Positions 11,953-55,298 of a stretch of 64,000 nt of DNA are shown here, piece after piece. The notes below the pieces were generated by a model. It was not told where the DNA came from. It saw only the letters and a list, made by a program, of their open reading frames with translations, and searched no databases. The stretch's first letter is position 1, and every line of letters begins with the position of its first letter. The DNA is from Pseudomonas phage HPP-Temi: the sequence record PP968062.1; one strand, given 5' to 3'. A program made the translations under genes and the position numbers.

Positions 11953-14900
11953 TTAAGTTAACGAGAGTGGCGACGGACGATTACTCGCGGGCGCCGATCT
12001 CATCAACGTGGAGGTCATACTATTATTTCCCCCACTACCGGTTTTTGCAGTCTCTTGCGTACCACTGGACTTTTGTTCGTTCAATTGTACCAGACGCTTG
12101 AGATGATCACGCATCTCAAGCAACGTCTTCAGTTGTTCAGCTTGGATGTCATCTACCTGCTGAGCCTTCTCGTTATTACGACGTATTTCGGCTTGACGTG
12201 TAGAGTTCTGTTGCTGGGCAACTTGCATAGCTGCTTCTTGTTGAGCTTGGACTACTGTGTTACCCGAATCGGCAGATGGGTTAGCGCCACTTGTAGTAGC
12301 ACCACCAACTGGCGACATCGGTGTAATACCTGGCAATACCGGAGTCTGCGCAGCAGCGCCGGTAGCGCTGTACGCTTCCTCACGAGCAACAGCATCTTTA
12401 CCAGCCTGACCGTTGTCTTCACTATTCCAGAGTTCAGCAGCAGATGCCTTAGCGTTAGCTTTGGCTTGTTCCTCTGTTGCCTCCTCAGTAGTCATGTTCT
12501 TACCAGCTTCTTGCGTGGCTACAGAGCTACCTTCTGCACCACCACGATGCTTCGCAATCTTCTCTTCGAACATCTGGTAGATTTCCCCGAGGGTACGAGG
12601 TTGGCCACCTTTCTTGTAGAAGATAGGACGGTTAGCGGATGCAGCTTCAGGGAATACCGATGCACCAATAGTGTCTTGATTACGAGTCAAGAACTTACGA
12701 GCGCCGCCAGGACCCATGAAGTGAGCAATGTACAGGTCTACGTCTGTCGGATCACGACCCAGTGCATCTTTCAGGAAGGTGTAGTTATCCTTAATGAAGC
12801 ACGCACCCATCAGGGCGTTGATACGTGGATCAAGACGTAGGCTACGAGCACCGTCGTCTGGCGGAATACCGAACTTGGAGCCATGTTTCTTCAACATTGC
12901 GTCCCAGGTATCATTGATAAACTGGAACCAGCCGGTAGCAGACGATGTCTTAGCTTTGACGGTGTAGTCGAAGTTAGACTCAAGAGATGCGAAGATGAAC
13001 AGGAGTTCTACAGGGATACCAACCATAGCTGCAACAGCTTGGAAGGTTTCGGCAGCAGCCTGACGAGACTTATTAGCTTTCGGATACGGAATCTGTTCCC
13101 ATGCACCACCGTTACCCTTCGTCAGGGTTCCGTAGGTTTTACCTGTAGCAGATACTTCACCGGCCAGACCAAGTTTGTACTTAGCACTTGCAGCAGAATC
13201 AGACACGTAGTCTATCGCTTCAGATGCTTTCGCCTTGGTGCTACCCCATGCATTACTTACGGTCTCTTTAGCAGAATCCCAAGTATTCGAAATGGATGCC
13301 ATTGCCCTCTCGGCAAAGCTACCACCTGCTGCGGCACTTTGAGTACCAGCTGCTTGGTCACCCGCAGATTGAGTTGGCGTAGACATGATGTCTTTGCTTG
13401 CATCTTTCTTGAGTTGTTCCAAGTCGGCTTCAGCCATTTTCTTGAGATCGTCTTTACTTCCTTTAACGGGGAAGAGGGAATCAACCTGCCATACACTGGC
13501 ACCATCTGTGTTAGTGGTACCCAGTACAGCATTACCTACAACAACTGCATCACTAGGCTTGAGTTTAGATTCCATGTTCGCAATGGTAGTACCTTGAGTA
13601 GTCCCGCGCATAGCACCGTAATAGGCACGTGCAACAGGCATGAAGCGACCAACGAACCAGTTGTAGTACGTTGCACGATCTTCATCATTACCCACGATAT
13701 CTTTACCAAACAGCGGAGCCGTTTCTTGCAGGATCGATTCTAGGTCACCACGGAACTCAGGAACACCTCCCTGCATGGATAGACCATTGAACACCATCGA
13801 TTCAGCATTCAACAGCGGATACACGTTGAAGAAGCTAAGTACTTCTAAACCGTAAGCACGCATCCGAATGGATTGTAATGCAGTCAGCTTAGTAGTAGCA
13901 GCTGCGGTAGCAACAATAGGAGCACCAGTAGAACCACCTAACCCAGGGAATGCTTTCTTAGCAGCAGCCAGAGGCATACTAGCTTTGGAAGGATCCATTG
14001 GACTAGGAGCGGTCTTACCAGTTGCAGTGTCAGCAGCTTTCTTAGCAGCGTCTTTAGCTTTATCAGCTACAGTCGTACCAGCGGCACCGCTTACATCCTT
14101 ACCTTCTTTCTTCTCGCCCGCTTTATAACGAACAAACAATGCTTTCCAAAGTTGATCAGCTGCCGGAATGGTATCTTCCAATTCACCTTCTTCAGAGAAC
14201 GGATCAACACGGTACTGCATCGGCGTATCACCCGACGTAGATACCTTAACAGCTTTAACCAAAGCACCTTTCAGTTCCTGAGGGAACTTATCATCGATCT
14301 CAACGAGTTTAATTTCATTCTTCTTGAGCTTAGCTAGAGCCTTAACCCAGGTCAAGAAGATCGGACGGAAACGAAGTTCCATCCAACGAGACATCCGCAT
14401 TACTTGGACGTCATTCTTAACATCGATGCCGAGGATATCTAGGATCGCTTTACCACCGACACCATTGATATTGAAATCAGGTTGTTCAGTGCGTTCGGTT
14501 ACCCGATCGAAAGCATCTTCCAGAGCTTGTACTTTTTGCTGTTGGTCGTGATCAGTGATACCGTATTGCAACATGCGAAGACGTCGGAACTCTGCCTTGT
14601 TATCGTTCATTTGACCGAAGATCGGTTTCAGAATGTAACGAGATGTCAGTTGGCCCAATGGGTTAAGACTCAGAGTAGTCAGGAGACCCGTCTGTTTAGC
14701 GTCCATCCCATCTTTGCTATAACCGTAAGCCATAGCGCCTGTACCAACCGCAGCAGCTGTACCACCAAGTAGCCAAGGAGCAGCACGTTTGGCCAGACCC
14801 ATAAGTCGACCTTTAGCACCACCCTTCATACCGCCGCCCATCAGTACGTCAAACGCACCCGAGCCTTCTTCGCCTTCAGTACCAGTAATCTTACTGAAGA

Positions 14901-17900
14901 TGCCTTTCAGTCCATCTGACAAACCTTTCAGAACTTTGTTTTGAGCTTTCTCAGATCCATCTTCTTTACCCTTCAGCTTATCCATCAAGCCACCAACGCC
15001 TTCTTTGGCTTTAGCAGCTTTATCCTGCCAGCTACCAACACGGAGCTTCTCAGGAACTTGGGTTTGCAGAGTTTCAAGGATACGTCCGAGCAACATCTGA
15101 TCAGTAGTTTCAAAGTCTTCGTAAGGAACCCGTTCGAATAGACGACCGAGAACCGAACCACCGGCATTTGCAAAACCACCGAGTACTTTCTTAGCAGCGC
15201 CGCCGTAGAACTTACCAGTCTTCTTCATTGCCCAACCCATGTACTTCATGGAAGCATCGATGTACTTGGAGCGAGCAGCTCGGAAGCCACGCCAGATCGT
15301 CCGACGGAAAATCCCTTTGTTCTTAGCGAGGATGTGTTTAGTACCATCGTAGTTACGGAGTTCTTTGTACTGAGACGGATCTAGTACAGGTTCACCCTGT
15401 TCGTTGTAGATGGGACCGTAAACGTCACCGAAGTTTTCGATAACCCTACCTTTCTCATCGAAGTACTTACCAGCGTTAACTAGTCGACGTTCGAGTACAG
15501 GTACGTTATCTCCGGGAAGGTAGGCATTTTGTGTTTCGATAGCGAAGTTGAACAGAGCCGAACCCATACCGATGGCAGTCTTAGCACCAAACTTCAGTGC
15601 AGACCAAGCCAGAGTGGAAGTGTTCGTAGCCATGAACTTAGCGCCCCAGCCCATCGCGTTAGCCAGACGACGACCAGTCTTAGTCAAACGCCAGCGTTTA
15701 CGAGTAGCACGGGACCAGAGTCCACTAGCCAGTTCTTTAGCCGTAGCTAGAATAGAACCGTTCTTATCCAACAGATCACCCTTGATGTCTTGCATCGAAG
15801 TAATCTGTTCACCGTCGGAGTTATAGTACTCACCATTCTTCAGGCCTTTAGCCGTAATAATGGGTTCTTGTTCTCCATCTAAGTGCCAGTCAAACTTATC
15901 GTCTTCAGTAGCTTGTTGTTGCTGAGGTGTAGTACCCTCAGAGAACTGCTGAGCAGGACTGTTCTGTTGGCCCATCAGAGCACTACGGATTTTAGCCGCG
16001 GCATCCATCATAAAGGCAGGAAGCTCTAGACGCATTCCTTTACTATCGAACAGACCTTGAGCAGCTTCAGAAGCAGTCAGAACTGTTACGCCGGTTGCTG
16101 TCACTACTTTACCGGTAATGTCTTGGACAGATTCAATAACCTTCTTGGTATTAACGTCTACCAGGTTACCCTGAATAAAATCGATACCTTTAATGATCGG
16201 TTCAGTTGGATTGAACTTCGTGAACACGTCCATGATCTTGGCTTTCTGTCCAAGCGCGAACTGGGTAGGATCCTGTTGGAACTGATCCATATGTTCCCCA
16301 AACTTAGCCTTAGACTTAGAATAGAGATCCTGGCCCATGATACTCGCATCATTCCAAGCACCTTGCATACCAGCTACATACGGACCGAATTGACCATTCT
16401 GCATGTTGCTTGCAAAGTTCTGGAAGCCTTCACCGTATTTACCCTGCATGTATTGGAACTTGCCTTGGGCGATACGACTATAGCGAGAGAGTTCTTCTTT
16501 GACACGAGCTTCTTGAGGAGCATGCTTATTACGGAAGCGGCGCATTGCATTCAGAGCGTTAGCTTTGGCTGCGCCAGGATAAGCCGGACCATAGAAGTTC
16601 TTGTCGTTCACGTCACCTGATGCTTCCGGCTGGTATCCACCTTCCGCCCATGGGTTAGTATCAGTTACGCCAGAGCGCATGATTTCCCAAATGCGGTTAT
16701 AGTTGATACGGTCCTGTCCCTGTTCAGTGACAATGATACCAAGCATCCGAAGAGGCTCAGTTTGACCAGCGTTGATCAGGCGATGTACTTCTTTAACAGG
16801 ATCACGGCTTACCGAACGAATGTCCAGGAAGGCACGAGAGTATTCATCCCGTAGACGATGGTTGTCAGCATTGTCTGCCATCTTACCTTTATCGTCGAAC
16901 TGGAACTTACCTTTAAAGAAACGTTGTAGTTCATCAGTGATGTTAATGTCAAGACCGTCCATATAACCACCAGAGCGGATGTAAGCTTCTGGATCGAAAC
17001 GACGGTTAGTGGACGCATCCCTCAACATACGTTCAGCAAGGGCCTTACGAGCATCAGGGGAGAGTTTTCCTTCCTCATCCATCTGATCGATAGCATCGTT
17101 AATAGCGCCGCTAGCACTGCGGATAGAGGCAGCAGGAATGATCTTCTTCTGGAGACGATCATCTGCTTGCGATTGTACTTCGAAACGACCTGTAGTGATG
17201 TCAAAGACTTCACGCTCAATATCGTCACGACCAGTACGGATCATACGCAGTTCTTGTAACTGACGAGACAGGTAACCAGGGATGACTTCAACGATACTAC
17301 GTTGGGTCAATTGGTTAAAGGCCGCACCTTGATCAATTGTTTGATAGTTTCCGTTTTCCAGACGATCATTCAGATGGAACTGAGGAACGAATGGCATAAT
17401 AGCATCGCGCAATACACCGCGGATACCGTAAGTGTTCTGGTAGTTGTTAACGTATTCTTGCAGGAATGCCGGAACGTTGTCCAGTGCATAACCTACCTGA
17501 TGATGACGTCCACCGAAACGGTTGGAAAGCTTTTCCATGGTAGGACGTACTTGACGACCAGCCCACGGTACAACGGACGACTTGAGGAAATCTGCACCCA
17601 GCTCGCCAGCGAACTGACCAGCAATGCTGTAACGATTATCCCAAGCAGAACCACCTGCCATATCACCCATTCGAAGACCGGCCACGATCTCAGAGAGACG
17701 ACTACCGATGTTCTTCGATACACGATCGTTAACTTGGTTACCATAACCACCTAGGAAACCATGAAGGCCTTGAGCAGCACCTAGACCCAACCGGCCTAGC
17801 ATATTGCCACCACGACCTTTCGCACCGAAGTTAGTCAGTTCACCAATATTACCTTTCTTATAGTCAGGTAGACCAGTGTTACGGACCAATGCTTCAAATG

Positions 17901-18720
17901 CCTTATTCTGCAATTCAAGGTTAGCTTCTTGAACTTTAACCAGATCACGGATACCCATGTAGGTACGGAACTGGAGCTCAAGACCTTTACGTTGAATTCC
18001 ATAGTTGACTTGTTCGTTATATCCTACAAGACGAGTTAGACTGTCTACAGCCATGCCCATCGAGCGGGACATAAAGTCGAAGCGCCCAGCGCTAACTTTA
18101 TCACGAATACCACGTTCTGCACGTTCAACCGCAGCTCGCGATATTGCACCCTGTTCACTACGCTGGAAGTTTTCTTTACTTACCAGTGTGTTTTGATCCA
18201 GAGCGGCTTTAATTACGTTTGCATCATCCTGTTCTTGACGACTGCGACGAATAGCGATTTGATCCCGTTGGGAATCAACCTCGTATTGGTACTGCTCAAC
18301 TTTCCGATTAAGACTATCGGAAATATTATCGTACAAGGCGTTTGGAATGCGATCTTTTAACTGAGGTAGATAATCCTGTGCTTTACGACCAAGATAGTCA
18401 AGGTCGGATGCATTAACTCGTTCAACCGTATCTTTGATATCGGTTACAGAAGCCATTACATCGTCATAGGCGCCAAACAAACGTGCAAAGCCATCCGGCG
18501 CAGCACTGCGCAAGAAGTTTCTTACGATGTCTTTGGTTTTCAATCCACCGAGGAAGCCCTCTTTCAGACCCGATTTGAATTCGGTAATTGGATCGCCAGG
18601 TTTGGCTCCAGGACCGAGATCATCAAACAGGTCATCCAGCTCATTCAGGTCAAGTACGCCAATTCGCCCCTGGGCATTTGTCCCAGCAGGTTTAGGCAAC
18701 CTGGTCTTTCTTGTAGCCAT
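11953..18720 (-). CDS. giant virion protein (about 2255 aa) with a C-terminal SLT/lytic-transglycosylase domain; comparable to phiKZ gp181
   Basis: Start set to ATG 18720 (MATRKTRL) with GGAG 8 nt upstream. The SLT-like segment reads GWFQFINDTWDAML...LYIAHFMGPGGARKF...RTLGEIYQMFE. There are long Ala/Lys- and Gln-rich low-complexity stretches. Confidence 0.85.
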   Translation of the reverse strand: MATRKTRLPKPAGTNAQGRIGVLDLNELDDLFDDLGPGAKPGDPITEFKSGLKEGFLGGLKTKDIVRNFLRSAAPDGFARLFGAYDDVMASVTDIKDTVERVNASDLDYLGRKAQDYLPQLKDRIPNALYDNISDSLNRKVEQYQYEVDSQRDQIAIRRSRQEQDDANVIKAALDQNTLVSKENFQRSEQGAISRAAVERAERGIRDKVSAGRFDFMSRSMGMAVDSLTRLVGYNEQVNYGIQRKGLELQFRTYMGIRDLVKVQEANLELQNKAFEALVRNTGLPDYKKGNIGELTNFGAKGRGGNMLGRLGLGAAQGLHGFLGGYGNQVNDRVSKNIGSRLSEIVAGLRMGDMAGGSAWDNRYSIAGQFAGELGADFLKSSVVPWAGRQVRPTMEKLSNRFGGRHHQVGYALDNVPAFLQEYVNNYQNTYGIRGVLRDAIMPFVPQFHLNDRLENGNYQTIDQGAAFNQLTQRSIVEVIPGYLSRQLQELRMIRTGRDDIEREVFDITTGRFEVQSQADDRLQKKIIPAASIRSASGAINDAIDQMDEEGKLSPDARKALAERMLRDASTNRRFDPEAYIRSGGYMDGLDINITDELQRFFKGKFQFDDKGKMADNADNHRLRDEYSRAFLDIRSVSRDPVKEVHRLINAGQTEPLRMLGIIVTEQGQDRINYNRIWEIMRSGVTDTNPWAEGGYQPEASGDVNDKNFYGPAYPGAAKANALNAMRRFRNKHAPQEARVKEELSRYSRIAQGKFQYMQGKYGEGFQNFASNMQNGQFGPYVAGMQGAWNDASIMGQDLYSKSKAKFGEHMDQFQQDPTQFALGQKAKIMDVFTKFNPTEPIIKGIDFIQGNLVDVNTKKVIESVQDITGKVVTATGVTVLTASEAAQGLFDSKGMRLELPAFMMDAAAKIRSALMGQQNSPAQQFSEGTTPQQQQATEDDKFDWHLDGEQEPIITAKGLKNGEYYNSDGEQITSMQDIKGDLLDKNGSILATAKELASGLWSRATRKRWRLTKTGRRLANAMGWGAKFMATNTSTLAWSALKFGAKTAIGMGSALFNFAIETQNAYLPGDNVPVLERRLVNAGKYFDEKGRVIENFGDVYGPIYNEQGEPVLDPSQYKELRNYDGTKHILAKNKGIFRRTIWRGFRAARSKYIDASMKYMGWAMKKTGKFYGGAAKKVLGGFANAGGSVLGRLFERVPYEDFETTDQMLLGRILETLQTQVPEKLRVGSWQDKAAKAKEGVGGLMDKLKGKEDGSEKAQNKVLKGLSDGLKGIFSKITGTEGEEGSGAFDVLMGGGMKGGAKGRLMGLAKRAAPWLLGGTAAAVGTGAMAYGYSKDGMDAKQTGLLTTLSLNPLGQLTSRYILKPIFGQMNDNKAEFRRLRMLQYGITDHDQQQKVQALEDAFDRVTERTEQPDFNINGVGGKAILDILGIDVKNDVQVMRMSRWMELRFRPIFLTWVKALAKLKKNEIKLVEIDDKFPQELKGALVKAVKVSTSGDTPMQYRVDPFSEEGELEDTIPAADQLWKALFVRYKAGEKKEGKDVSGAAGTTVADKAKDAAKKAADTATGKTAPSPMDPSKASMPLAAAKKAFPGLGGSTGAPIVATAAATTKLTALQSIRMRAYGLEVLSFFNVYPLLNAESMVFNGLSMQGGVPEFRGDLESILQETAPLFGKDIVGNDEDRATYYNWFVGRFMPVARAYYGAMRGTTQGTTIANMESKLKPSDAVVVGNAVLGTTNTDGASVWQVDSLFPVKGSKDDLKKMAEADLEQLKKDASKDIMSTPTQSAGDQAAGTQSAAAGGSFAERAMASISNTWDSAKETVSNAWGSTKAKASEAIDYVSDSAASAKYKLGLAGEVSATGKTYGTLTKGNGGAWEQIPYPKANKSRQAAAETFQAVAAMVGIPVELLFIFASLESNFDYTVKAKTSSATGWFQFINDTWDAMLKKHGSKFGIPPDDGARSLRLDPRINALMGACFIKDNYTFLKDALGRDPTDVDLYIAHFMGPGGARKFLTRNQDTIGASVFPEAASANRPIFYKKGGQPRTLGEIYQMFEEKIAKHRGGAEGSSVATQEAGKNMTTEEATEEQAKANAKASAAELWNSEDNGQAGKDAVAREEAYSATGAAAQTPVLPGITPMSPVGGATTSGANPSADSGNTVVQAQQEAAMQVAQQQNSTRQAEIRRNNEKAQQVDDIQAEQLKTLLEMRDHLKRLVQLNEQKSSGTQETAKTGSGGNNSMTSTLMRSAPASNRPSPLSLT

Positions 18721-18787
18721 GGTCAACTCCATCGATATAAACAATCATATCGTTTAGCTTTTTGTAACCCCTAAGAGGAAATTTGAA

Positions 18788-20440
18788 ATGAAGAAGGCTC
18801 TAGTCCCTTTCAACATTGACCTACTGATCCCCACAAAGGCTCAGCTTACAATGTTGGGGCAAGTAACTAGCCATGAGATCTTCGAAGGTACCGGTGGTAA
18901 CTTTCACGAGAAAGGTCTGTTCTCCGTAGAAATCTTCGGACGAATTGGATCCTCTGAACGTGAAGGTCGCTTCGGTTATATCAACATGGGTCTTGAAATT
19001 ATTCACCCGGTCATCTATCGTAACCTCATTAAGTTGAAGGCATTCTACGAAGATATCATCCTGGGTAAAGCTTTTGCTGTATTTGATCCGTCGATTAAAG
19101 ATTTCGTTCGTTCTAACGAGCTCGAAGGTAGAACTGGCTATGCCTTCTTCTTTGATAATTGGAAGAAGATCGACTTCGGTGAAACTAAGTCCTCTATTCG
19201 TCGTGTACGGGTTGAGCTGATGAAGAAGTACATGAGTAACTGTACCTTCAAGAACCTGCTCGTTATTCCCGCTGCATATCGTGAGGCCGAGATCGATGTT
19301 GATGGTCGTGTATCCATGGACGAGGTTAACGAACACTATCGTTACATGTTGAACCAGTCTTACGGTGTACCTGAATACTTCGGTCCCAATGATGACCTGA
19401 GCATTTATGACCGTAAACGGACTTCAATGCAGTTGACTGCTCTGGCGATCTATAACCACTACGAAAACCTGTTGTCTGGTAAAGGTGGATATATTCAACA
19501 GAAGTGGGCATCTCGACGTGTATTCAACGGTACTCGTAACGTTATCAGTTCGTTGGATACTAACGCAGCTGATCTCGACCAACCCAACCGTCCCAAGTTT
19601 AAAGATGCTGTAGTCGGTATTTATCAAGCAGCCGTATCGGTTAAGCCTAAAACTATTTATCATCTCCGGAATGGTGTTGTAGGTCAGGTATTCGACAGTC
19701 TGTCTAACCGTGTAGAACTGATAAACAAAAAGACCCTGAAACTTGAATGGGTTAACATCAGTAACGAAGAGATGGACCTTTGGGGTACACCAGAAGGTCT
19801 GGAACGTGTTATCGGTGAACTGAAGGTAATTGAGAAGCGGTCTCGTGCTATTGAGATCGGTGGTTATTACCTGGCTCTCGTGTACCTCGATGACAAACAG
19901 AACTTCAAGGTCTTCCGTGACATCACTGAAATGCCTAAGAATTTGGATCACAAATTCGTTCGTCCTATCTCTTATGCAGAGTTGATTTACCTGAGCGGAT
20001 TACCTATGTGGAAAAGAAACTCCGCATTCGTAACTCGTTATCCCGTTGAGAACTATAACAGTTCTATCCCTGTCAAGATGTACGTTAAGACCACCGTTAA
20101 AGGTGAGATGCGTTATCCACTGGGTTGGGATTGGGAACGTGATACCAATGCCGAAATCGCTCTTGAGTATCCGATCATCACTATCAACGAGCCTGCACAA
20201 TGGCACGACTCGACATCTATCTCTCCGTCCATTCTTGCTCCTCTTGACGCAGACTTCGACGGTGACACTGTGTCGTTCAACGCCGTGTATTCCAAAGAGG
20301 CAATTGAAGAATCTGATAAGTTCTTCAAATCTCGTCTAGCCTATATAAAGGCTGGTGGTGGTCTCGCATTCAGTGTCAACATCCACACGCTTAACCTAAC
20401 TCTCCGGTACATGACTGGGGAACCGAAAAGTAGGGATTAA
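18788..20440 (+). CDS. RNA polymerase beta-prime-like subunit, N-terminal part (550 aa), probably a virion RNAP subunit
   Basis: Catalytic motif LDADFDGD, compared with beta-prime NADFDGD. Upstream motif RRVFNGTRNVI, compared with beta-prime KRVDYSGRSVI. SD AAGAGGAAA upstream. Confidence 0.8.
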   Translation: MKKALVPFNIDLLIPTKAQLTMLGQVTSHEIFEGTGGNFHEKGLFSVEIFGRIGSSEREGRFGYINMGLEIIHPVIYRNLIKLKAFYEDIILGKAFAVFDPSIKDFVRSNELEGRTGYAFFFDNWKKIDFGETKSSIRRVRVELMKKYMSNCTFKNLLVIPAAYREAEIDVDGRVSMDEVNEHYRYMLNQSYGVPEYFGPNDDLSIYDRKRTSMQLTALAIYNHYENLLSGKGGYIQQKWASRRVFNGTRNVISSLDTNAADLDQPNRPKFKDAVVGIYQAAVSVKPKTIYHLRNGVVGQVFDSLSNRVELINKKTLKLEWVNISNEEMDLWGTPEGLERVIGELKVIEKRSRAIEIGGYYLALVYLDDKQNFKVFRDITEMPKNLDHKFVRPISYAELIYLSGLPMWKRNSAFVTRYPVENYNSSIPVKMYVKTTVKGEMRYPLGWDWERDTNAEIALEYPIITINEPAQWHDSTSISPSILAPLDADFDGDTVSFNAVYSKEAIEESDKFFKSRLAYIKAGGGLAFSVNIHTLNLTLRYMTGEPKSRD

Positions 20441-20442
20441 CC

Positions 20443-23400
20443 ATGCGTTTGAAAATTCATCAGTTTCTGAAGAACTACAGCCTTCGAAACTCCGGCGAAC
20501 TATTGCGTCCGCGTTTGTTCCCGTTAGCGAAGCTGGAACTGCCTCTTGAGGTAGTATATCAGTTCCTTGATGACAACGCTGCTGTAAAGGGTCCGAGTCA
20601 ATCGGACCCCCTCTTTGCCAAGCTGCAAGGAAAGGTGTTCATTGAGCACGTTACACAGCTGGAGACTCTTGATGGTAACGCTCGGCGTACTTCGCTTATT
20701 CCGACTACCCTTGAAGCAGACTTCCGTCGTCAGCACCGTTTCTTCAAACCACTGCGTAAAGATGCGGCTGTAAAGCTTAACACACAGAACGTTGCTGTAG
20801 TCAACTACAGCATGCTGAACCCGCTTTGGAAATACCAAGCCAACTTCAAGTCGAACTGGTATCGCTGGAGCAACAATACTGCTACCTTCTGGAAAGGTGT
20901 AGCAGATATGCATAAACGTTTCGGCTGGAACCAATTCATCGAACTCCATATCCCGGAATCCATTCCGACGTTTAACGAGTTCAAGATGTTGGAGCGTGGT
21001 ACCACTCAGGCATTGCTTGAGAAGTTCCGTACCAATGCAGCACTGAACGTTTTTGATCTGTATCGTTTCCTCGGTGAAAACCGTGCTTCTTCTTATCTGT
21101 CTACTTTGCCGAAAGAAGCATACGAGAAGATTAACTTCCTGATTCGTGTACAGAACAACTTCTTCGTTATTAACCTGGGTCAACTGGAACAATGGCGCGA
21201 TGCTCCGGAAGTTATTGCCGAGCAAGAAACTGTAGCCACTGAAAGCTTCGTTGATGAACTGGGTCTTGAAGTCTTCTATAAACCTGACGTATTACAACGT
21301 CGCATGATCAGCCTGTTGACTACTCTCGTTGAGTACAACAATGGTAACGATACTCTCATGGAGGTCGAACCAGAGGCACCTAAGATCACCGATATGGTTG
21401 AACCCGAAGACAAGTCCACTGACGAAGAAGAAGAAGCTGAAGAAGTTACTGAGCGTGCAGAAGAAGCTGAGGAAGGTGTCGATACAGATGCTATCGATGA
21501 TACATCCGAATCTGGTTCTAATGTTAGCTCCCTGCTTGACCTGGGTATGCTCGAAGTTGTATTTGAGCCGCCACCCGAGTCCGAGCTTGAGAAGACTACT
21601 CTTGTCATCGAGAAAGATCCGCTTGAGACAGCAGAAATTGCTAAAGCACCTACTCTCAAAGTAGAAACTGCTCCGGTAACTAAATCGATTATCCCAGCTT
21701 TCAGTAGCGGTGATGCGTTGGTTGATCCGGTTGGTCAGAAAGCTTATGACCTGTACCAAGTCGGTATGATCTCTGCCCGTGCATTTGAACAGGCTGTAGA
21801 TGACTCGGCTATGTATAAGTCTATTCCGGATCCGTTTGGTTCGGGTAAGACTATTGCAGAAGCAATGACATATGAAAAATCTGACTTCGTAATTCCATCT
21901 GAACAATTCGCTGACAAAACCACCATCACTGACAAGTCGATGCTGGGTGCAGTTCACAAAGCGATGATGCGCAAGTACACGAAGACTCTTCTACCGAAAG
22001 ACATCATGCAATCTATCCTGTCCATTCAGGCTCAGGGTGTAGCTGTTACTGATGTGCGTATGGAAGAAGTCCGTGATGCGATGAACCACTACCAATCGTT
22101 CACTGTTACTGTGAAACCGATTCGTGGTCGTCCTTCTCAACTGCGTTTCCGTATTCCGGTTATTGACCGGGATGGTCGTTTCCGTTCCAATGGTGTTACT
22201 TATCGTCAACGTCTGCAACGCGCGGATATTCCGATTCGTAAAGTCAACCCACTTAAGGTTGCACTCACCAGCTATTACAACAAGACTTTCGTAAATCGTT
22301 CTGAGCGTGCTGAGAACAACTACGATACTTGGCTGATCCGTCAGATCGGTGTACGTGCTCGTGATAACAATGACGTGTCGGTAACTGATGTACGTTATGC
22401 TGAACTGGACCAAGCTCAATTCGTTCTGCCTCGGGTATACTCTGCTCTGGGTCGTGCTTACCGTTCGTTCAAGAATGGTGCGAATGAGTTCTACTTCAAG
22501 TTCGACGATCATGCCGAGTACTTCCACAAGACCTACGGGATTTCCGTAGAAGCGCTTGAGAAGGATGGAATGGTTGTTGTGGGTTCCCATAACCGTCTAC
22601 CGATTTTGGTTGACCAAGGTTCTCAGTTCTACGTTAAAGAAGGTAACGATCTCGAACCGATGGGGACGATGATTGATATCCTGGGTCTGAACCAAGTGAA
22701 AGCTCCTCTGGAAGCAATCCTTGTTTCTGTGGCCAACAAAGAACTACCCCTCGGTTTCATCTTGGGTTATCGTCAAGGTCTGTCTGGTCTACTGGATACG
22801 CTTGGCGTTCAATATCAAAGTCATCCTCGTGGTACTCGTATTAGCGTTAGCCCCGATGACTACACTCTGGCATTCTCTGACGAGATCCTGGTGTTCAGTC
22901 GTCAAGACTACCGTGCTACTCTGGTACTCGCTGGCTTGAAGCGTTATCATCAATCTCTGAAGAAGTTCTCTCGTTGGGATTTCGATCGACGTGACGTCTA
23001 CTTCCGTCTACTAGAGGAAGCTGGTCTCTCTGCACGTTATACTCGTGAGATCGATGGCCTGTTTACTTCCTTCGTTGACCCGATCACTAAAGGTCTGCTT
23101 GAAGAGATGGGAGAGCCGACTGATTTCCAAGGTCTGCTATACCGCTCTGTAGAGCTGCTGACTAATGACTGGTCTCCTGCCGAGGTAGACGGTGCATACA
23201 TGCGCTATCGCGGCTATGAACGTATGGCTGGGGCTATCTATGGCAGTCTGAACCGTGCTGTTCGTATATACAACAACCGTGAAGGTTCTGCCGATCAACA
23301 GATCGTCATGGATCAACACGAAGTATGGCGTAAGATTGCATCTGACCCGACCGTTGCTACTATTGAAGACTCGAACCCTATCGCTAACTTGCGCGAGCAA

Positions 23401-23661
23401 GAAGCCATGACCTACCGTGGTGATGGTGGCCGTGGGCCGGACTCGATGGTTGCCCGTACACGTATCTATCACGAGTCTGATGTGGGCGTTGTATCTGAAT
23501 CTACTGTTGACTCTGGTGACGTGGGTGTAATTGCCTATCTGTCTCCTGATGCCAACTTCAACAGCATGCGTGGTACTACCCGTATGTTCGAGAAAGGCAA
23601 AGACGGTACGGCTAAGATGTTGTCTACTGGTGCACTCACTGGTGTAGCTACAACCAACGAT
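20443..23661 (+). CDS. RNA polymerase beta-like subunit, exon 1 (3' boundary approximate)
   Basis: Segment RGDGGRGPDSMVARTRIYHESDVGVVSESTVDSGDVGVIAYL aligns by eye to the conserved beta region GPGGL...[25 protein letters not shown]. The ORF would otherwise stop at TGA 23665-23667. Confidence 0.65.
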
Positions 23662-24003
23662 GATTGAGGTTATTGAATCGGAAAGTCTTTTCAGATTTGA
23701 GAAACCTTTGGTCCCAATGAATAGCGATATTCATTTGGAATCTCCCTTAATTGCTGGAACCTCCTTAGAGCTAATCTAACCACTGCGAGTCGAAAGACAA
23801 AGCCAAGGTTTGAAAATAGATTAGATTGGACAATCAGCAGCCAAGCTCCGTATAGGAGAAGGTTCAACGACTAACCGCTTATCACGGTGTACCTGCCAAG
23901 TGGTGGGGAAATAGGGAGCCTCTCAAGTAGAGGAAGATATAGTCTCCTCTTTAGGGAAACCTAAAGCAGTCGAAAGACGGAATTGATCTAACGAATCAAT
24001 TTG
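23662..24003 (+). ncRNA. group I self-splicing intron (IA-like), ORF-less, about 340 nt, inside the RNAP beta-like gene
   Basis: All four conserved core elements are in canonical order: P (aattgctggaac, about 23750), Q (aatcagcagcc, about 23832), R (ggttcaacgactaacc, about 23861) and S (aagatatagtctcc, about 23934). The GACTA/TAGTC pair forms P7. Both flanking ORFs are in frame 1. Exon 2 has no SD and no ATG. A possible P1 pairs exon CAACGAU with intron GGUUAUUG. Confidence 0.6.
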
Positions 24004-25152
24004 AAGACAAGGCCGAAACGTATCAACTTCGTTTCTATTCAGCAACAGCAAGGTATCTATGCAGACGGTTACGAGGTTACTCCTCTCCGTACTGGCTACG
24101 AGCAGATCATCGCTCAACGCACTAGCTCTATCTTCGCATCCGCTGCTGAACAAGATGGTGAAGTTATTGCTGTAGATGCTCACGGTATTACCGTCAAGTA
24201 TGCCGATGGGGAAATCTTCAGTTCTCAACTGGGTACCGTTCATGGTACCGCTGCGGGTGTAAACTATCCGCACACTCTGACCACTGGCCTTAAGAAAGGT
24301 GATAAGTTCAAACGTGGTGATACTCTGGCTTTCAATAGCAAGTATTTCACTGAGGACCGCTATACTCCTGGACAGGTTCTGTGGAAAGCAGGTGTGATGG
24401 TTCGTGTTGCATTCTGCGATAACCTTGACACGCTTGAAGACGGATCGGTAATCAGCCGTGACGTAGCGATCAAGCTGAATACTCAGACTACTGACATTAA
24501 GAACATCACTGTTCGCTTTGATCAGGCAATCGAGAATTTGGTCAAGGTTGGGGATCACGTAGACTTGGATTCAATTCTATGTACTATTCAAGACCCCGAA
24601 ATGGCCAAGAACTCTCTGTTTGGTGCCGCGAGTATTGAAACCCTGAAGAAACTTTCCGCTAACGCTCCGCGAGCGAAAGTTGTAGGGACTATCTCTAAGA
24701 TCGAATGTTACTATCATGGTGACATCGAAGATATGTCTGACAATCTTCAGAAGGTAGCTCGTGCTTCTGATAAAGAGAGAGCCGATAGGGCCAAGTCGTT
24801 GAACGAACCGGAATTCACTGGTGAAGTCGACGCATCCTTCCGTGTTAAAGGTCAGATGCTTGAACCTGACAACATGGTTATCCGAATCTACATCGACCAT
24901 GATATCCCTTGTGGTACTGGTGACAAAGGTGTAGTTGCGAACCAGATGAAAACTGTGTTCTCTCGGGTAATGGATGGTCGGAACGAGTGTGAAGATGGTA
25001 CTCCGATTGGTCTGATCTTCGGTAACACATCGGTCGAAGAACGGATGGTCATGTCCCCTAAATTGATTGCGACTACCACAATCTTGCAGCAAGCACTTTC
25101 TCAGCATATAGCTGCGCTCTATCGAGGAACCACAAATGCAAAATCAAAGTAA
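24004..25152 (+). CDS. RNA polymerase beta-like subunit, exon 2 (5' boundary approximate)
   Basis: GDKGVVANQM...EDGTPIGLIFGNTSVEERMVMSPKL aligns by eye to the beta active-site region GNKGVISKI...[23 protein letters not shown]. Confidence 0.65.
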   Translation, partial: KTRPKRINFVSIQQQQGIYADGYEVTPLRTGYEQIIAQRTSSIFASAAEQDGEVIAVDAHGITVKYADGEIFSSQLGTVHGTAAGVNYPHTLTTGLKKGDKFKRGDTLAFNSKYFTEDRYTPGQVLWKAGVMVRVAFCDNLDTLEDGSVISRDVAIKLNTQTTDIKNITVRFDQAIENLVKVGDHVDLDSILCTIQDPEMAKNSLFGAASIETLKKLSANAPRAKVVGTISKIECYYHGDIEDMSDNLQKVARASDKERADRAKSLNEPEFTGEVDASFRVKGQMLEPDNMVIRIYIDHDIPCGTGDKGVVANQMKTVFSRVMDGRNECEDGTPIGLIFGNTSVEERMVMSPKLIATTTILQQALSQHIAALYRGTTNAKSK

Positions 25153-27112: not shown

Positions 27113-27835
27113 ATGAACGTTAGGCAATTAACTCGTGATGCTCAACGTGTCAACGCGAATCTGATTGAACTGGAAGATGGTGGTATTGCTACTAACCTTC
27201 CATGCAAGATCCAGATCCCTGAACGTTTTGCTGCAAAGAACCTAGCTGTGCTGGGTAGTGAAGTCTTCATCTTCGGGTTCTTCCCGATTATCATGAATGA
27301 AGAGTTCTATGCGGTGAACAACACCATCGCCATGATGCGCATTCTCCCGAGCTCTACTGAACGAGTTGTTGTGGAGAATGAACCTTACTACGAATTCAGT
27401 TTCGAGAAAGGGGACAAAGTTTTCTATTCGACCCATCTGGTAGTTAACGATACGTTGACTTACTACATGTACGACGAGTTCGTATCTAAAGGAAACATTC
27501 CTTGGTACATGAACTACTACGACATGGCTAAGATGTTCGAGACTGCGAAGGAACACGCAGATACCTTCATTGGTGGTCGTTCTATCATCGAGTTGATTAT
27601 CTCTACTATCGCTCGTGATCCGGATGATATGACAAGATTGTATCGCCACATTCTGGCGCGACATGAAGACGTTAAAAATAAACCACCGGTAACCGTGCCT
27701 TTCCGTTCGGTTATCTGGAACACCTCTGATACCACCTCGAAACTTAACGGTGCTTACTTCAGTGACGCTATTAACTCCGCTCTGGTGAACCCCAGCGAGA
27801 AGGTAGAAGTAATTGAAGAACTGTTGAGGACGTAA
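27113..27835 (+). CDS. hypothetical protein (240 aa)
   Basis: ORF in the plus-strand block downstream of the RNAP genes. Confidence 0.55.
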   Translation: MNVRQLTRDAQRVNANLIELEDGGIATNLPCKIQIPERFAAKNLAVLGSEVFIFGFFPIIMNEEFYAVNNTIAMMRILPSSTERVVVENEPYYEFSFEKGDKVFYSTHLVVNDTLTYYMYDEFVSKGNIPWYMNYYDMAKMFETAKEHADTFIGGRSIIELIISTIARDPDDMTRLYRHILARHEDVKNKPPVTVPFRSVIWNTSDTTSKLNGAYFSDAINSALVNPSEKVEVIEELLRT

Positions 27836-27850
27836 CACGGAGTTGCAGCA

Positions 27851-28684
27851 ATGCATCCTTTGGCACAATCTTCTTTTGGTGTCCAAAATTCTCCGCAGAA
27901 CCAAGTTCGTATCGGTTGCACCATGCTAGCCGGTACAGACAAAAAAGGAATTCTTGCGCCGAATGCGGACGGTTATTACACTGTAGTTCTGGGTGCCTAT
28001 GGTACACATAACTCCGCTGGTATGTTCTATGACGAAGCCAGTGGCGTTGCCATGTTCGATCCGAACTCTTCTTTGATGCGGCGCCTTAAGAAAGGTGTAC
28101 TCTTCATGGAGTTCAAACATCCGGAACCGTTTACAGATCTGATGATCGATGGTCGCGTTGTTCGTCAACCGATGGATGATCGTCAATACCTACAACGTAT
28201 TCGTATGATCGACGATAACCGGGTATGTGCACACATCCGTGCTCTGACTATTGTCCCCGGTAAGAATGAGAATGGTAAGACCGTTAAGATGGTCGTAGGC
28301 GAAGTTAAGCCTTACGGTCCCTTCGGTCACATTTTCAAAGAGTCGCTGGATAACCCGAGTATCAATACTTATTGCTCCGTACGTTCTATCACTCAAGATG
28401 ATGTAATGCGTGGCATCAAGTACACTCGTGAAATCGCCACATGGGACTTCGTAGGTGAAGGCGGTATCTACATCGCTAACAAGTATACCTCTCCTGCACT
28501 GGAAAGCTTCTCTGATACTGAAGTCATCATCACTCCCGCTACCCTGTGGAAGATGGAAGACGAAGCTAAGAAGCGTGCTAACATCGGTATGGAATCTGAT
28601 CCTAACCTTGATGTTACTGACCTGATCCAACAACTAGGTTGGTCTCGTCGTAAGCCTGTACGTGTACCTGCTTACATGCGATAA
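27851..28684 (+). CDS. hypothetical protein (277 aa)
   Basis: GGAG upstream of the ATG. The terminator hairpin follows. Confidence 0.55.
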   Translation: MHPLAQSSFGVQNSPQNQVRIGCTMLAGTDKKGILAPNADGYYTVVLGAYGTHNSAGMFYDEASGVAMFDPNSSLMRRLKKGVLFMEFKHPEPFTDLMIDGRVVRQPMDDRQYLQRIRMIDDNRVCAHIRALTIVPGKNENGKTVKMVVGEVKPYGPFGHIFKESLDNPSINTYCSVRSITQDDVMRGIKYTREIATWDFVGEGGIYIANKYTSPALESFSDTEVIITPATLWKMEDEAKKRANIGMESDPNLDVTDLIQQLGWSRRKPVRVPAYMR

Positions 28685-46792: not shown

Positions 46793-48100
46793 TTAGGACA
46801 GTTCTTCTACGCTGGACTTAGCCACGACCATGTAGTTGACGTTCTTGAAGTAAGCGCTTGCATAGATCACGTTATCACGGATCATACGAGATACACCTTG
46901 AGGAACGGAACTATAACGAGTCATCCCTTCAGCTGCTTTTAACAGCTTCGAGAACAGCATCATCCATTCAATCGTTTCAGGCGAAGATTTGTTGATATCA
47001 CCAGTGTCATTAGTTACCAGTTGATAGTCTTTAAACTTCTGCGAGAATTGAGTGATGCCATTACGGTTCTGCGGGTTACCCAGCACAGAGAATGCAATGG
47101 ACTTGTAGGTGTTCGAAGAGAGTTCGAACTTGTTGTCTACGTAGGTCTGAGTATAACCAGGACCACGTGCAGTGCGACGGATCAGGGGCAGACGCTTGCG
47201 ATGGTCAACAGTAGGACTGTAAGTACCAGCACGATAGTCAGCTTGTTCGATGGAATACTGGTTCCAGAACGGAGTAAAGATGAACTCGGTCGTCATGAAC
47301 AGGTCAGGAAGAATAACTTCCCAGTCAGTCCGAGGATGAGTAGAGTCTTTCAGGAGTTCTTCAACGATCTTGTCCTTAATAAGGTCAGGGTTGTTACCTG
47401 CCTCACCATAGACGATCGCAATCCAGTAAGCCGGGAAACGCATGCTGTCATCACGAGGGTTGTGATATTCGAACATGAATGCCCGTTGATGGGTGTACGG
47501 ATACTGGGCACGCTTGGCTTGTACTTCCTCAATCTTTTCGACGAGGTCGTAATCAGCTAGCAACTGCTTAACGATAAGAGGGTCTTTGAAGAAGTCATCA
47601 AACGGAACGATCGGGTGAACGATCTCGATTACGTATTCATCGTACTGTGCTGCAAACGATTCGTCTGCAAGCCAAATGTTCATCTGGTTAGCTTCAGTGC
47701 CTACCAGTACGAACTCAACCCACTCGGGCATCCAGATACTACCGTTAGAGATCATTTGACCGCTACGGAAAGTCTTGATGACACCGTTGAATTCTGCCAT
47801 TACCAGCTGACGCAGTACGTTCGGATCAGAACCGATTGTACCAGCGATAGACTGCTGATAAATATATTCCCCAAGCTTCAGAACTTGATCTTTATTGTTA
47901 CCGGCAACATCAACGACGTTTCCATCCTTTACGCTATGAAAAGAAACAAAAACAACGTTTGGTGCGGACGTACCGGTGTGGAAAGTCTTGTCCTTTGCAT
48001 AGGTTGCGCTGTTCGACGAAAGTTCGCCGAGCTTCGCTACAGTTTCTGGGGCATTCGAAATGAGTGCAGGGAAACTATAAAAGCCTTTCAAATTGTACAT
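46793..48100 (-). CDS. hypothetical protein (435 aa)
   Basis: ORF. A divergent AT-rich region lies upstream. Confidence 0.55.
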   Translation of the reverse strand: MYNLKGFYSFPALISNAPETVAKLGELSSNSATYAKDKTFHTGTSAPNVVFVSFHSVKDGNVVDVAGNNKDQVLKLGEYIYQQSIAGTIGSDPNVLRQLVMAEFNGVIKTFRSGQMISNGSIWMPEWVEFVLVGTEANQMNIWLADESFAAQYDEYVIEIVHPIVPFDDFFKDPLIVKQLLADYDLVEKIEEVQAKRAQYPYTHQRAFMFEYHNPRDDSMRFPAYWIAIVYGEAGNNPDLIKDKIVEELLKDSTHPRTDWEVILPDLFMTTEFIFTPFWNQYSIEQADYRAGTYSPTVDHRKRLPLIRRTARGPGYTQTYVDNKFELSSNTYKSIAFSVLGNPQNRNGITQFSQKFKDYQLVTNDTGDINKSSPETIEWMMLFSKLLKAAEGMTRYSSVPQGVSRMIRDNVIYASAYFKNVNYMVVAKSSVEELS

Positions 48101-54617: not shown

Positions 54618-55298
54618 GTGATCATGAAGCCCAATCGTAAAGTCCTTGAACAAGAGATTCTCTATTTCATCGACATGTTCCGACCTGGGAGTGAAAACGT
54701 TAAGATCTATCAGGAACTCTTTGATCGTTACTCGGACGAAGAGTTCTTTGAATGGATGGAACGTTTAGAGGCTGGCGAAGTACTGGCTCTCTATGCTCCC
54801 AACCTAGAAGAACCAACTCTGAGCATTGCACAGAACTATAAAGTCGCTGATGCCCTTGGATTTGAGCTCTTCCAACACCTGATCCTAACTGACCCAGGTA
54901 CTGGTCAAGTATATAAGACTCAGAATAAACACCTTGTCGGTATGGTGCCTCTGCGTCGACAAGTACAGATGCTAGCTAAGAAGGCTTCTATTCCCGGCTC
55001 TAACACGGTCGTGGATGAACGTTCTGGTCAAGCGACTGGTGACAGTAAGGGTGCACGACTATCCGCTCCAGAGATCCAGGTTAACGCCTCTAAAGGTCTT
55101 AACAACATGGTTCTTGAACTTATTAAGTTCCGTGGTGGCGACGAGAAGGCGTACAACGCCATGAACCGTTCTATCATTGAAACTGGTGAAGCCTCTCTGG
55201 ATTCTATTATGGCTGAGACGCCTTCGCAAGTTAAGTCTAACAAGACCATGTCTGTCTATCTGAAGGCTATGCACTTGCAGAACAACCTCGTGGGGTAA
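54618..55298 (+). CDS. hypothetical protein (226 aa)
   Basis: ORF. Confidence 0.5.
   Translation: MIMKPNRKVLEQEILYFIDMFRPGSENVKIYQELFDRYSDEEFFEWMERLEAGEVLALYAPNLEEPTLSIAQNYKVADALGFELFQHLILTDPGTGQVYKTQNKHLVGMVPLRRQVQMLAKKASIPGSNTVVDERSGQATGDSKGARLSAPEIQVNASKGLNNMVLELIKFRGGDEKAYNAMNRSIIETGEASLDSIMAETPSQVKSNKTMSVYLKAMHLQNNLVG

Follow-up and report, generated by a model that had tools for sequence, protein, structure and literature searches.

The stretch of DNA analysed here, called the window throughout, comprises 64,000 nucleotides (nt) of Pseudomonas phage HPP-Temi (sequence record PP968062.1). At positions 18788 to 25152 it carries two neighbouring genes for subunits of a split, multi-subunit RNA polymerase, the second of which is interrupted by a 348-nt group I intron. 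As argued below, these are most probably virion polymerase genes of the phiKZ type, and the intron occupies the site that is targeted by the PhiPA3 homing endonuclease gp210.

Two polymerase genes and an insert

The locus is composed of four adjoining parts, all read in the same direction:

18788..20440, plus strand: predicted virion RNA polymerase beta-prime N-terminal subunit of 550 amino acids (aa), orthologue of phiKZ gp180 and PhiPA3 gp212 (PHROG 2986, profile, Foldseek)
20443..23664, plus strand: first exon of the gene for the beta-like subunit, an orthologue of phiKZ gp178; codons 1-1074, up to ...TTNDD (PHROG 3148 positions 2-1050; collinearity with phage PA1C)
23665..24012, plus strand: group I intron of 348 nt without an open reading frame (ORF) (Rfam RF00028; insertion relative to PA1C)
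24013..25152, plus strand: second exon of the beta-like gene, opening with PKRINFVSIQQQQ; 379 codons and the stop (PHROG 3148 positions 1051-1423)

The closest relatives of this region, at about 85% nucleotide identity by Megablast, belong to the PA1C / PS119XW / phiLBG22 / BRkr / HHBS36_1 / phiHQ clade of Pseudomonas aeruginosa jumbo phages, represented by seven records in our collection; a further 24 kb of the window is 82.4-82.5% identical to the same clade. PhiPA3, 201phi2-1 and phiKZ are remoter relatives. Identical copies of the window proteins were not found by exact-sequence look-up in a 15-billion-sequence collection, and the window accordingly represents a distinct species within the PA1C group.

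The 550-aa ORF carries the motif RRVFNGTRNVI at residues 243-253 (19514-19546) and the catalytic loop DFDGD at residues 489-493 (20252-20266), with the stop codon 57 residues beyond the latter. An earlier note on this DNA, made from its letters, had taken the ORF for the N-terminal portion of beta-prime on account of these two motifs and its early end, and both the coordinates and the assignment are borne out by our searches. The protein matches PHROG 2986 ('RNA polymerase beta subunit') over positions 1-538 of 539 with E = 2.7e-220, so the ORF is not a chance one, and its short length is the norm of the family, since more than 100 homologue clusters are all about 550 aa long. None of the three polymerase ORFs has a Pfam match that rises above noise, and the 550-aa protein as a single sequence found no match in the PDB. 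A 28-sequence family profile run against the PDB, on the other hand, matched the AR9 non-virion beta-prime N-terminal subunit (7s00_d/7s01_d, E = 5e-15) and bacterial beta-prime in two stretches, one of them containing GKRVDYSGRSVI and the second being residues 449-516 of E. coli beta-prime, in which NADFDGDQ is the counterpart of the family's aDfdGD. An AlphaFold model of the protein (predicted local distance difference test, pLDDT, 78.6; below 50 for residues 490-493 of the catalytic loop) gave beta-prime matches only in Foldseek (E = 3e-16 to 1e-11), led by AR9 7s00_d (3e-16) and the split cyanobacterial/plastid N-terminal subunits 8gzg_D (6e-14) and 9epc_D, with full-length bacterial beta-prime lower at about 1e-12. 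Profile and fold search both place DFDGD in the double-psi barrel region of beta-prime, and they support the reading of the protein as a beta-prime N-terminal module with the Mg-binding DFDGD loop that ends just past the barrel, where cyanobacterial beta-prime is split as well. This break agrees with what has been reviewed for jumbo phages, whose two beta-prime genes are each divided behind the double-psi barrel in the cyanobacterial manner (PMC7598289).

The next ORF (20443-23667, 1074 aa) starts 2 nt past the stop of the first and ends at an in-frame TGA, which is the first codon of the intron. The family PHROG 3148 (1424 positions) is divided between this ORF, which covers positions 2-1050, and ORF 24001-25152, which covers 1051-1423 and holds exon 2 of the same gene. 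Removal of the intron in silico yields a 1453-aa protein, which in a gap-free alignment is 93.7% identical to the product of the uninterrupted 1453-aa gene of PA1C; the match is collinear up to 23663/23664 and resumes at 24013, and the joined exons are collinear with PHROG 3148 over the full length.

Relationship to cellular beta emerges from profiles. The last 274 aa of exon 1 as a single sequence had no match in the PDB. An exon-2 profile matched Thermus beta 566-656 (E = 6.5e-9) and 822-881, as well as AR9 beta 7s00_C, and exon 2 contains the lysine motif GDKGVVANQMK. A second profile, which spans the junction and combines the spliced window protein with 22 intron-less relatives, matched Thermus beta over three stretches in collinear order (394-472, 534-656 and 822-881; E = 1.9e-14), of which 394-472 and 534-555 align to the C-terminal part of exon 1. 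The cellular beta regions accordingly appear in their order, namely the fork/GPGG region, HDDANR...MQRQ and the GDK...K lysine motif. At the junction, marked here and below by a slash, the family sequence kDD/pkRvnfisiqq is aligned to Thermus beta LEHDD/ANRALMGSNMQTQ. The earlier note had called the gene that follows the 550-aa ORF beta-like; this holds as to homology, while its picture of one plain ORF gives way to a 1453-aa gene split by a group I intron. The first ~760 residues of the subunit (20443-22720) have no detectable cellular beta counterpart and form a lineage-specific extension, which includes an acidic tract at residues 297-356 (21331-21510) with 43% Asp/Glu over 60 residues.

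Phages of the phiKZ type have a virion and a non-virion enzyme, with the same beta-prime split point in both (PMC7598289), so the two genes might instead encode the non-virion (middle/late) polymerase. We consider this extremely unlikely. For the 550-aa protein, the E-value given above for PHROG 2986, the gp180-type family, contrasts with only E = 3.4e-06 for the second family, PHROG 2987; in PhiPA3 the syntenic genes are annotated as counterparts of phiKZ gp180 and gp178; gp178 and gp211/209 are virion polymerase subunits (PMC11620839); and the locus has the phiKZ-like position between a gp181-like gene and gp177/176/175-like head genes (PA1C and PhiPA3 annotations; PHROG). Sequence comparison supports orthology of the pair with phiKZ gp180/gp178 and PhiPA3 gp212/gp211-209, in agreement with the kinship to the fragmented virion and non-virion polymerases of phiKZ-like phages that the earlier note had proposed. 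Because of this orthology and synteny, the assignment to the virion-packaged enzyme appears right; the orthologues are found in virions of phiKZ, 201phi2-1 and SPN3US (PMC11620839, PMC5105663).

The 348-nt group I intron and its predicted removal

The insert gives the only Rfam match in the whole window: RF00028 at 23681-23966, with 70.5 bits (gathering score 50) and E = 9e-17, over the full model 1-253 and not truncated. Its boundaries are ...GAU/UGAGG...CAAGG/CCG, which puts a U last in the 5' exon and a G last in the intron, and the codons run on in frame once the intron is taken out. The alignment of kDD/pkR to HDD/ANR places the intron directly after the two invariant aspartates, D1073 and D1074, of the beta motif (E)HDD/ANR. 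All seven PA1C-clade records measure 6151 nt where the window measures 6499 nt, and the intron is therefore absent from each of them. The helices of the intron were assigned as follows:

23658-64 (CGAUGAU, exon) with 23669-75 (GUUAUUG, intron), plus strand: proposed P1, a 7-bp pairing with a U23664.G23669 wobble
23742-47 / 23913-18, plus strand: P3
23752-57 / 23834-39, plus strand: P4
23762-64 / 23828-30, plus strand: P5
23771-77 / 23818-24, plus strand: P5a
23840-49 / 23855-63, plus strand: P6
23869-73 (GACUA) / 23940-44 (UAGUC), plus strand: P7, invariant strands present
23919-23 / 23929-33, plus strand: P8
23953-62, plus strand: P9
23980-86 / 23996-24002, plus strand: P9.2

An alignment of 13 intron cores from this insertion site, which we call site A, gave a consensus fold of 61 pairs with compensatory changes in 42. 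The window intron forms 53 of 57 consensus pairs, and the four that it misses are an alignment artefact, its own GUC-GAAA-GAC hairpin standing in for P9.1. The conserved P3-P9 core, with its P3/P7 pseudoknot, is intact, and covariation backs this.

Mechanistically, self-excision from the pre-mRNA is most likely, along the usual group I route of two steps with guanosine as initiator. The RNA would first be cut after U23664, probably paired with G23669 in P1, and the exons would be ligated after cleavage at the terminal G24012, restoring the frame ...TTNDD-PKRINF.... The spliced gene would then yield a protein of roughly 160 kDa, its junction spanned by ...GVATTNDDPK... and by the tryptic peptide MLSTGALTGVATTNDDPK, whereas the unspliced RNA would be read only as far as the TGA at the first intron codon. 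No ATG, GTG or TTG stands in frame within the first 80 codons of exon 2, and the sole in-frame start upstream is TTG 24001, which lies within the intron helix P9.2 and is preceded by no Shine-Dalgarno sequence. With exon 2 lacking a start codon and the unspliced message stopping at TGA, splicing should be obligatory for a functional enzyme.

The alternative would be that the insert stays in the RNA and that the beta-like subunit is made as two polypeptides of 1074 and about 380 aa, an additional split in an already fragmented polymerase. Jumbo-phage polymerases do tolerate splits (PMC7598289), stand-alone ~380-aa proteins equal to exon 2 are listed in many databases, and exon 2 of PhiPA3 and 201phi2-1 starts with ATG and is annotated as a separate gene. 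In the window, however, exon 2 has no such start, the insert is a complete group I core supported by covariation, and the break would fall within the invariant HDD/ANR motif; in 201phi2-1, moreover, proteomics point to a joined product of gp273/gp274, for which two spliced reads are also reported (PMC11512511). The two-polypeptide explanation is thus very improbable. (A search with exon-2 homologues was set aside as a gauge of how frequently the gene is split: it returned only ~380-aa proteins and was probably biased to similar length.)

We therefore regard it as very probable that the window encodes two virion polymerase subunits of the phiKZ type, with the beta gene split by a self-splicing group I intron that sits at the PhiPA3 gp210 site and carries no endonuclease. 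Several points weigh on the other side. Splicing of the window intron is predicted rather than observed, and the same applies to virion packaging of the subunits and to resistance to gp210-type nicking in this phage. P1 can be drawn, yet its exon side is invariant, the equivalent pairings of relatives such as that of 201phi2-1 are unclear or need bulges, the local minimum-energy fold missed it, and P10 would be 1-2 bp at most. One long-read transcriptome contained no spliced reads for the predicted introns of phiKZ (PMC10914365), which indicates that in vivo splicing of this intron family can be hard to detect. Lastly, Pfam is silent on both polymerase proteins, their homology resting on custom profiles, PHROGs and a moderate-confidence model (pLDDT 78.6; template-modelling, TM, scores of about 0.3-0.4).

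For annotation, the consequence is that the beta gene should be joined across 23665-24012; otherwise it appears as a truncated 1074-aa protein and a ~380-aa orphan, a pattern that is widespread in public data.

Neighbouring genes and further polymerase candidates

Other features of the window that bear on the virion polymerase are:

11953..18720, minus strand: giant virion protein of the phiKZ gp181 / PhiPA3 gp213 type (PHROG 3201 full length; PA1C and PhiPA3 annotations agree)
18721..18787, no strand: divergent intergenic region, 67 nt between start codons 18720 and 18788 (sequence; PA1C spacing also 67 nt)
27113..27835, plus strand: 240-aa virion protein of the phiKZ gp176 / PhiPA3 gp206 / SPN3US gp244 family (PHROG 2926 full length, E = 3.6e-96)
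54618..55298, plus strand: 226-aa protein of the phiKZ gp149 type, candidate beta-type virion subunit (PHROG 3233)

The giant gene reads divergently from the polymerase genes from its own ATG at 18720, and its product has a C-terminal lytic transglycosylase domain at residues 1879-2159 (PHROG 4067). In the window and in PhiPA3 it is undivided, at about 2255 aa, and the PA1C records (L001/L205) annotate two coding sequences with a 43-nt overlap at this place, which suggests a frameshift or a sequencing error in PA1C. A Shine-Dalgarno-like stretch, AAGAGGAAA, precedes the ATG at 18788. The earlier note had proposed virion subunits from the divergent arrangement with 67 nt between the start codons. 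The distance is exact and the virion assignment stands by way of orthology; the layout alone proves nothing.

It had also placed the C-terminal part of beta-prime elsewhere in the genome. This agrees with our results as far as the main module, of the gp80 type, is concerned, since neither the window ORFs nor the syntenic PA1C annotation showed one; for the extreme C-terminus, a candidate lies only 2 kb downstream of the locus. This is the gp176-like protein, 82% identical to PhiPA3 gp206, whose gene in the window immediately precedes the head protease ORF 27851-28684 (PHROG 3014). Thomas et al. proposed the gp176 family as the virion beta-prime C-terminal tail on genetic and proteomic grounds, with weak hidden Markov model support (PMC5105663). 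In our hands, the window protein had no beta-prime match below E = 1e-3 in the PDB profile search or in Foldseek with a model of pLDDT 78.8, which shows a confident N-terminal beta-sandwich (residues 1-110) and 40 disordered residues at the end. It is thus a candidate from the literature that neither profile nor fold search confirmed.

The 226-aa protein matches PHROG 3233 ('RNA polymerase beta subunit') over positions 1-223 of 225 (E = 1.8e-95), and had no match in the PDB as a single sequence; the syntenic gene of PA1C sits between homologues of gp148 and gp150. Virion enzymes consist of at least five polypeptides (PMC7598289), and four of five would be encoded in the window if the gp176 proposal holds.

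Elsewhere in the window, ARAGORN called a tRNA-Gly(gcc) at 47864-47944 on the minus strand, entirely within ORF 46793-48100, a full-length match to the virion structural family PHROG 3293. No tRNA was detected there at the Rfam gathering threshold, and the call is probably a false positive.

The same site in related phages

The junction gap was measured directly in 80 related viral loci. The gene is uninterrupted in 61 and interrupted at or next to the junction in 19, by six short insertions of 336-375 nt and thirteen long ones of 1.1-1.5 kb. Nine of the 12 interrupted loci that were tested gave an Rfam group I match. In each of the ten long site-A introns, an ORF of 249-345 aa opens some 65 nt from the intron's 5' end, and all three such ORFs that were scanned are HNH_3/NUMOD proteins (I-HmuI-like). 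Site-A introns without an ORF also occur in 201phi2-1 and at loci L142 and L202. This conserved spot in the virion beta gene is therefore an intron hot-spot, with 19 of 80 loci occupied and two insertion sites 11 nt apart. The second, site B, lies downstream of site A within the Val codon of DDPKRV/NF and is used in L136, L151, L166-L168 and L199. In L144 (2492-3990) both sites seem to be occupied, so that two group I introns would flank a micro-exon of 11 nt, CCAAAACGAGT, with a further intron upstream at 604-1061. The boundaries at site B and in L144 were placed by the U(-1)/terminal-G rule together with the reading frame. A pattern scan of viral contigs with CAGCAGCCAAG...AAGGTTCAACGACTA proved uninformative for this locus, since more than 120 unrelated phage contigs matched and the string is generic to many phage group I introns.

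One of the introns at site A is that of PhiPA3, where the orthologous gene is split as gp211 / gp210 / gp209 and the insertion point, after GAT GAT, is identical to that of the window. Birkholz et al. (2024) described gp210 as an HNH homing endonuclease within a putative group I intron, located after two conserved Asp residues (E. coli RpoB D675), and showed that it nicks the intron-less gp178 gene of phiKZ, giving PhiPA3 a competitive advantage (PMC11620839). The hot-spot is also the target of gp210, the one intron endonuclease for which a deciding role in the contest between co-infecting jumbo phages has been demonstrated. The two introns have homologous cores (75% identity over positions 47-343 of the window intron) and the same 5' start (T..GTTATTG), but that of PhiPA3 measures 1352 nt and encodes a 330-aa HNH/NUMOD endonuclease from intron position 67, against 348 nt and no ORF in the window. 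The gp178 gene of phiKZ is uninterrupted at this position and is the sensitive target of gp210 (PMC11620839), whereas the window allele is occupied.

With no endonuclease gene, the window intron would be unable to promote its own spread. It would nevertheless break the recognition site of gp210-type enzymes, and the allele should resist cleavage by those of co-infecting phages because an occupied site lacks the contiguous recognition sequence (PMC11620839; PMC12908238). This leads to the idea, which we put forward tentatively and think rather doubtful, that the intron is a recently fixed 'immunity allele' shielding an essential virion polymerase gene from gp210-type nicking by PhiPA3-like co-infectors. 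If so, the seven intron-less PA1C-clade records would be vulnerable to such enzymes, and endonuclease-free introns at the hot-spot would be defensive elements kept by selection between phages rather than decaying selfish DNA. In any case, an endonuclease-free intron allele beside intron-less sister genomes offers a natural matched pair for studying site occupancy and resistance.

How the intron came to lack an endonuclease may be explained in two ways. It may be the remnant of a PhiPA3-type mobile intron that lost the gene, or it may be ancestrally ORF-less and have been moved in by the trans-acting endonuclease of a co-infecting phage, a possibility worth keeping although we lean against it. 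Transfer in trans would fit the lack of any remaining endonuclease coding trace, as the intron has no ORF of at least 80 aa and only about 23 nt where relatives have a segment of about 1 kb; it would also fit the ORF-less copies at the same site in 201phi2-1, L142 and L202, and a peripheral P5 module shared with the phiKZ gp55/56 intron and L160 and not with PhiPA3, as expected from modular exchange. Conversely, an endonuclease-sized ORF is present in 10 of the 13 site-A introns of the viral loci, and the ORF-less ones are scattered among lineages, which fits repeated loss in a homing cycle. There is also no co-conversion tract beside the window intron, the flanking exons being PA1C-like right up to the junction. 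These data do not discriminate well between loss of the endonuclease and transfer in trans.

The P5 extension in question, CACTGCGAGTCGAAAGACAAAGCCAAGG..., occupies 23765-23810 (intron positions ~100-145). Its identity is 85-90% to the module of the phiKZ gp55/56 intron and of L160 and only 42-52% to that of PhiPA3, and 201phi2-1 lacks it. The gp55/56 intron of phiKZ, which lies downstream of gp55 (L003, AF399011, 3967-5320), is group I by Rfam (75.6 bits) and belongs to the same family, its P3-P6 region including the P5 module being 80-90% identical to that of the window; it differs in residing in another gene, at another site, and in carrying the HNH endonuclease gp56. Its 3' exon begins GCT GAT TTT GAC GGC GAT CAA (ADFDGDQ), so the gene that it splits appears to be non-virion beta-prime, with the break at the very catalytic loop. 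Recent recombination between this intron and that of the window was considered and rejected, because the module is also present in L160, a site-A intron; common modular ancestry would explain the sharing. Parts of introns from this family are also present in N4-like Pseudomonas phages (PAP02, LP14, YH6), in Escherichia phage nepoznato and in Serratia jumbo phages, and the phage collection held no close full-length relative of the window intron.

A counterpart in kind is the intron of 201phi2-1 gp273/gp274, which is likewise ORF-less (336 nt), of group I, and at the same site of the same gene; its core is about 69% identical to that of the window, and it differs by the missing P5 module and a longer P2 region. 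Since it has no HNH endonuclease ORF, we class the window intron, judged on its sequence, as an ORF-less relative of this kind and outside the mobile introns of the PhiPA3 gp210 type.

As to the polymerase itself, the split beta-prime of cyanobacteria and plastids (RpoC1, gamma) and the AR9 subunit share with the window protein the natural break just after the catalytic double-psi barrel, at a sequence identity of only 12-14%; the window protein differs from the cyanobacterial and AR9 proteins in the ~240-residue gap between RRVFNGTRNVI and DFDGD, and the enzyme to which it belongs has neither alpha nor omega subunits (PMC7598289). The phiKZ pair gp180 and gp178 presents the same two subunits as the window, with the same gene order, neighbours (gp181-like, gp177/176/175-like) and beta-prime split. 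The polymerase genes of the window are thus of the known, textbook phiKZ type, and what the window adds is an ORF-less intron at the PhiPA3 gp210 homing site in an otherwise intron-less clade.

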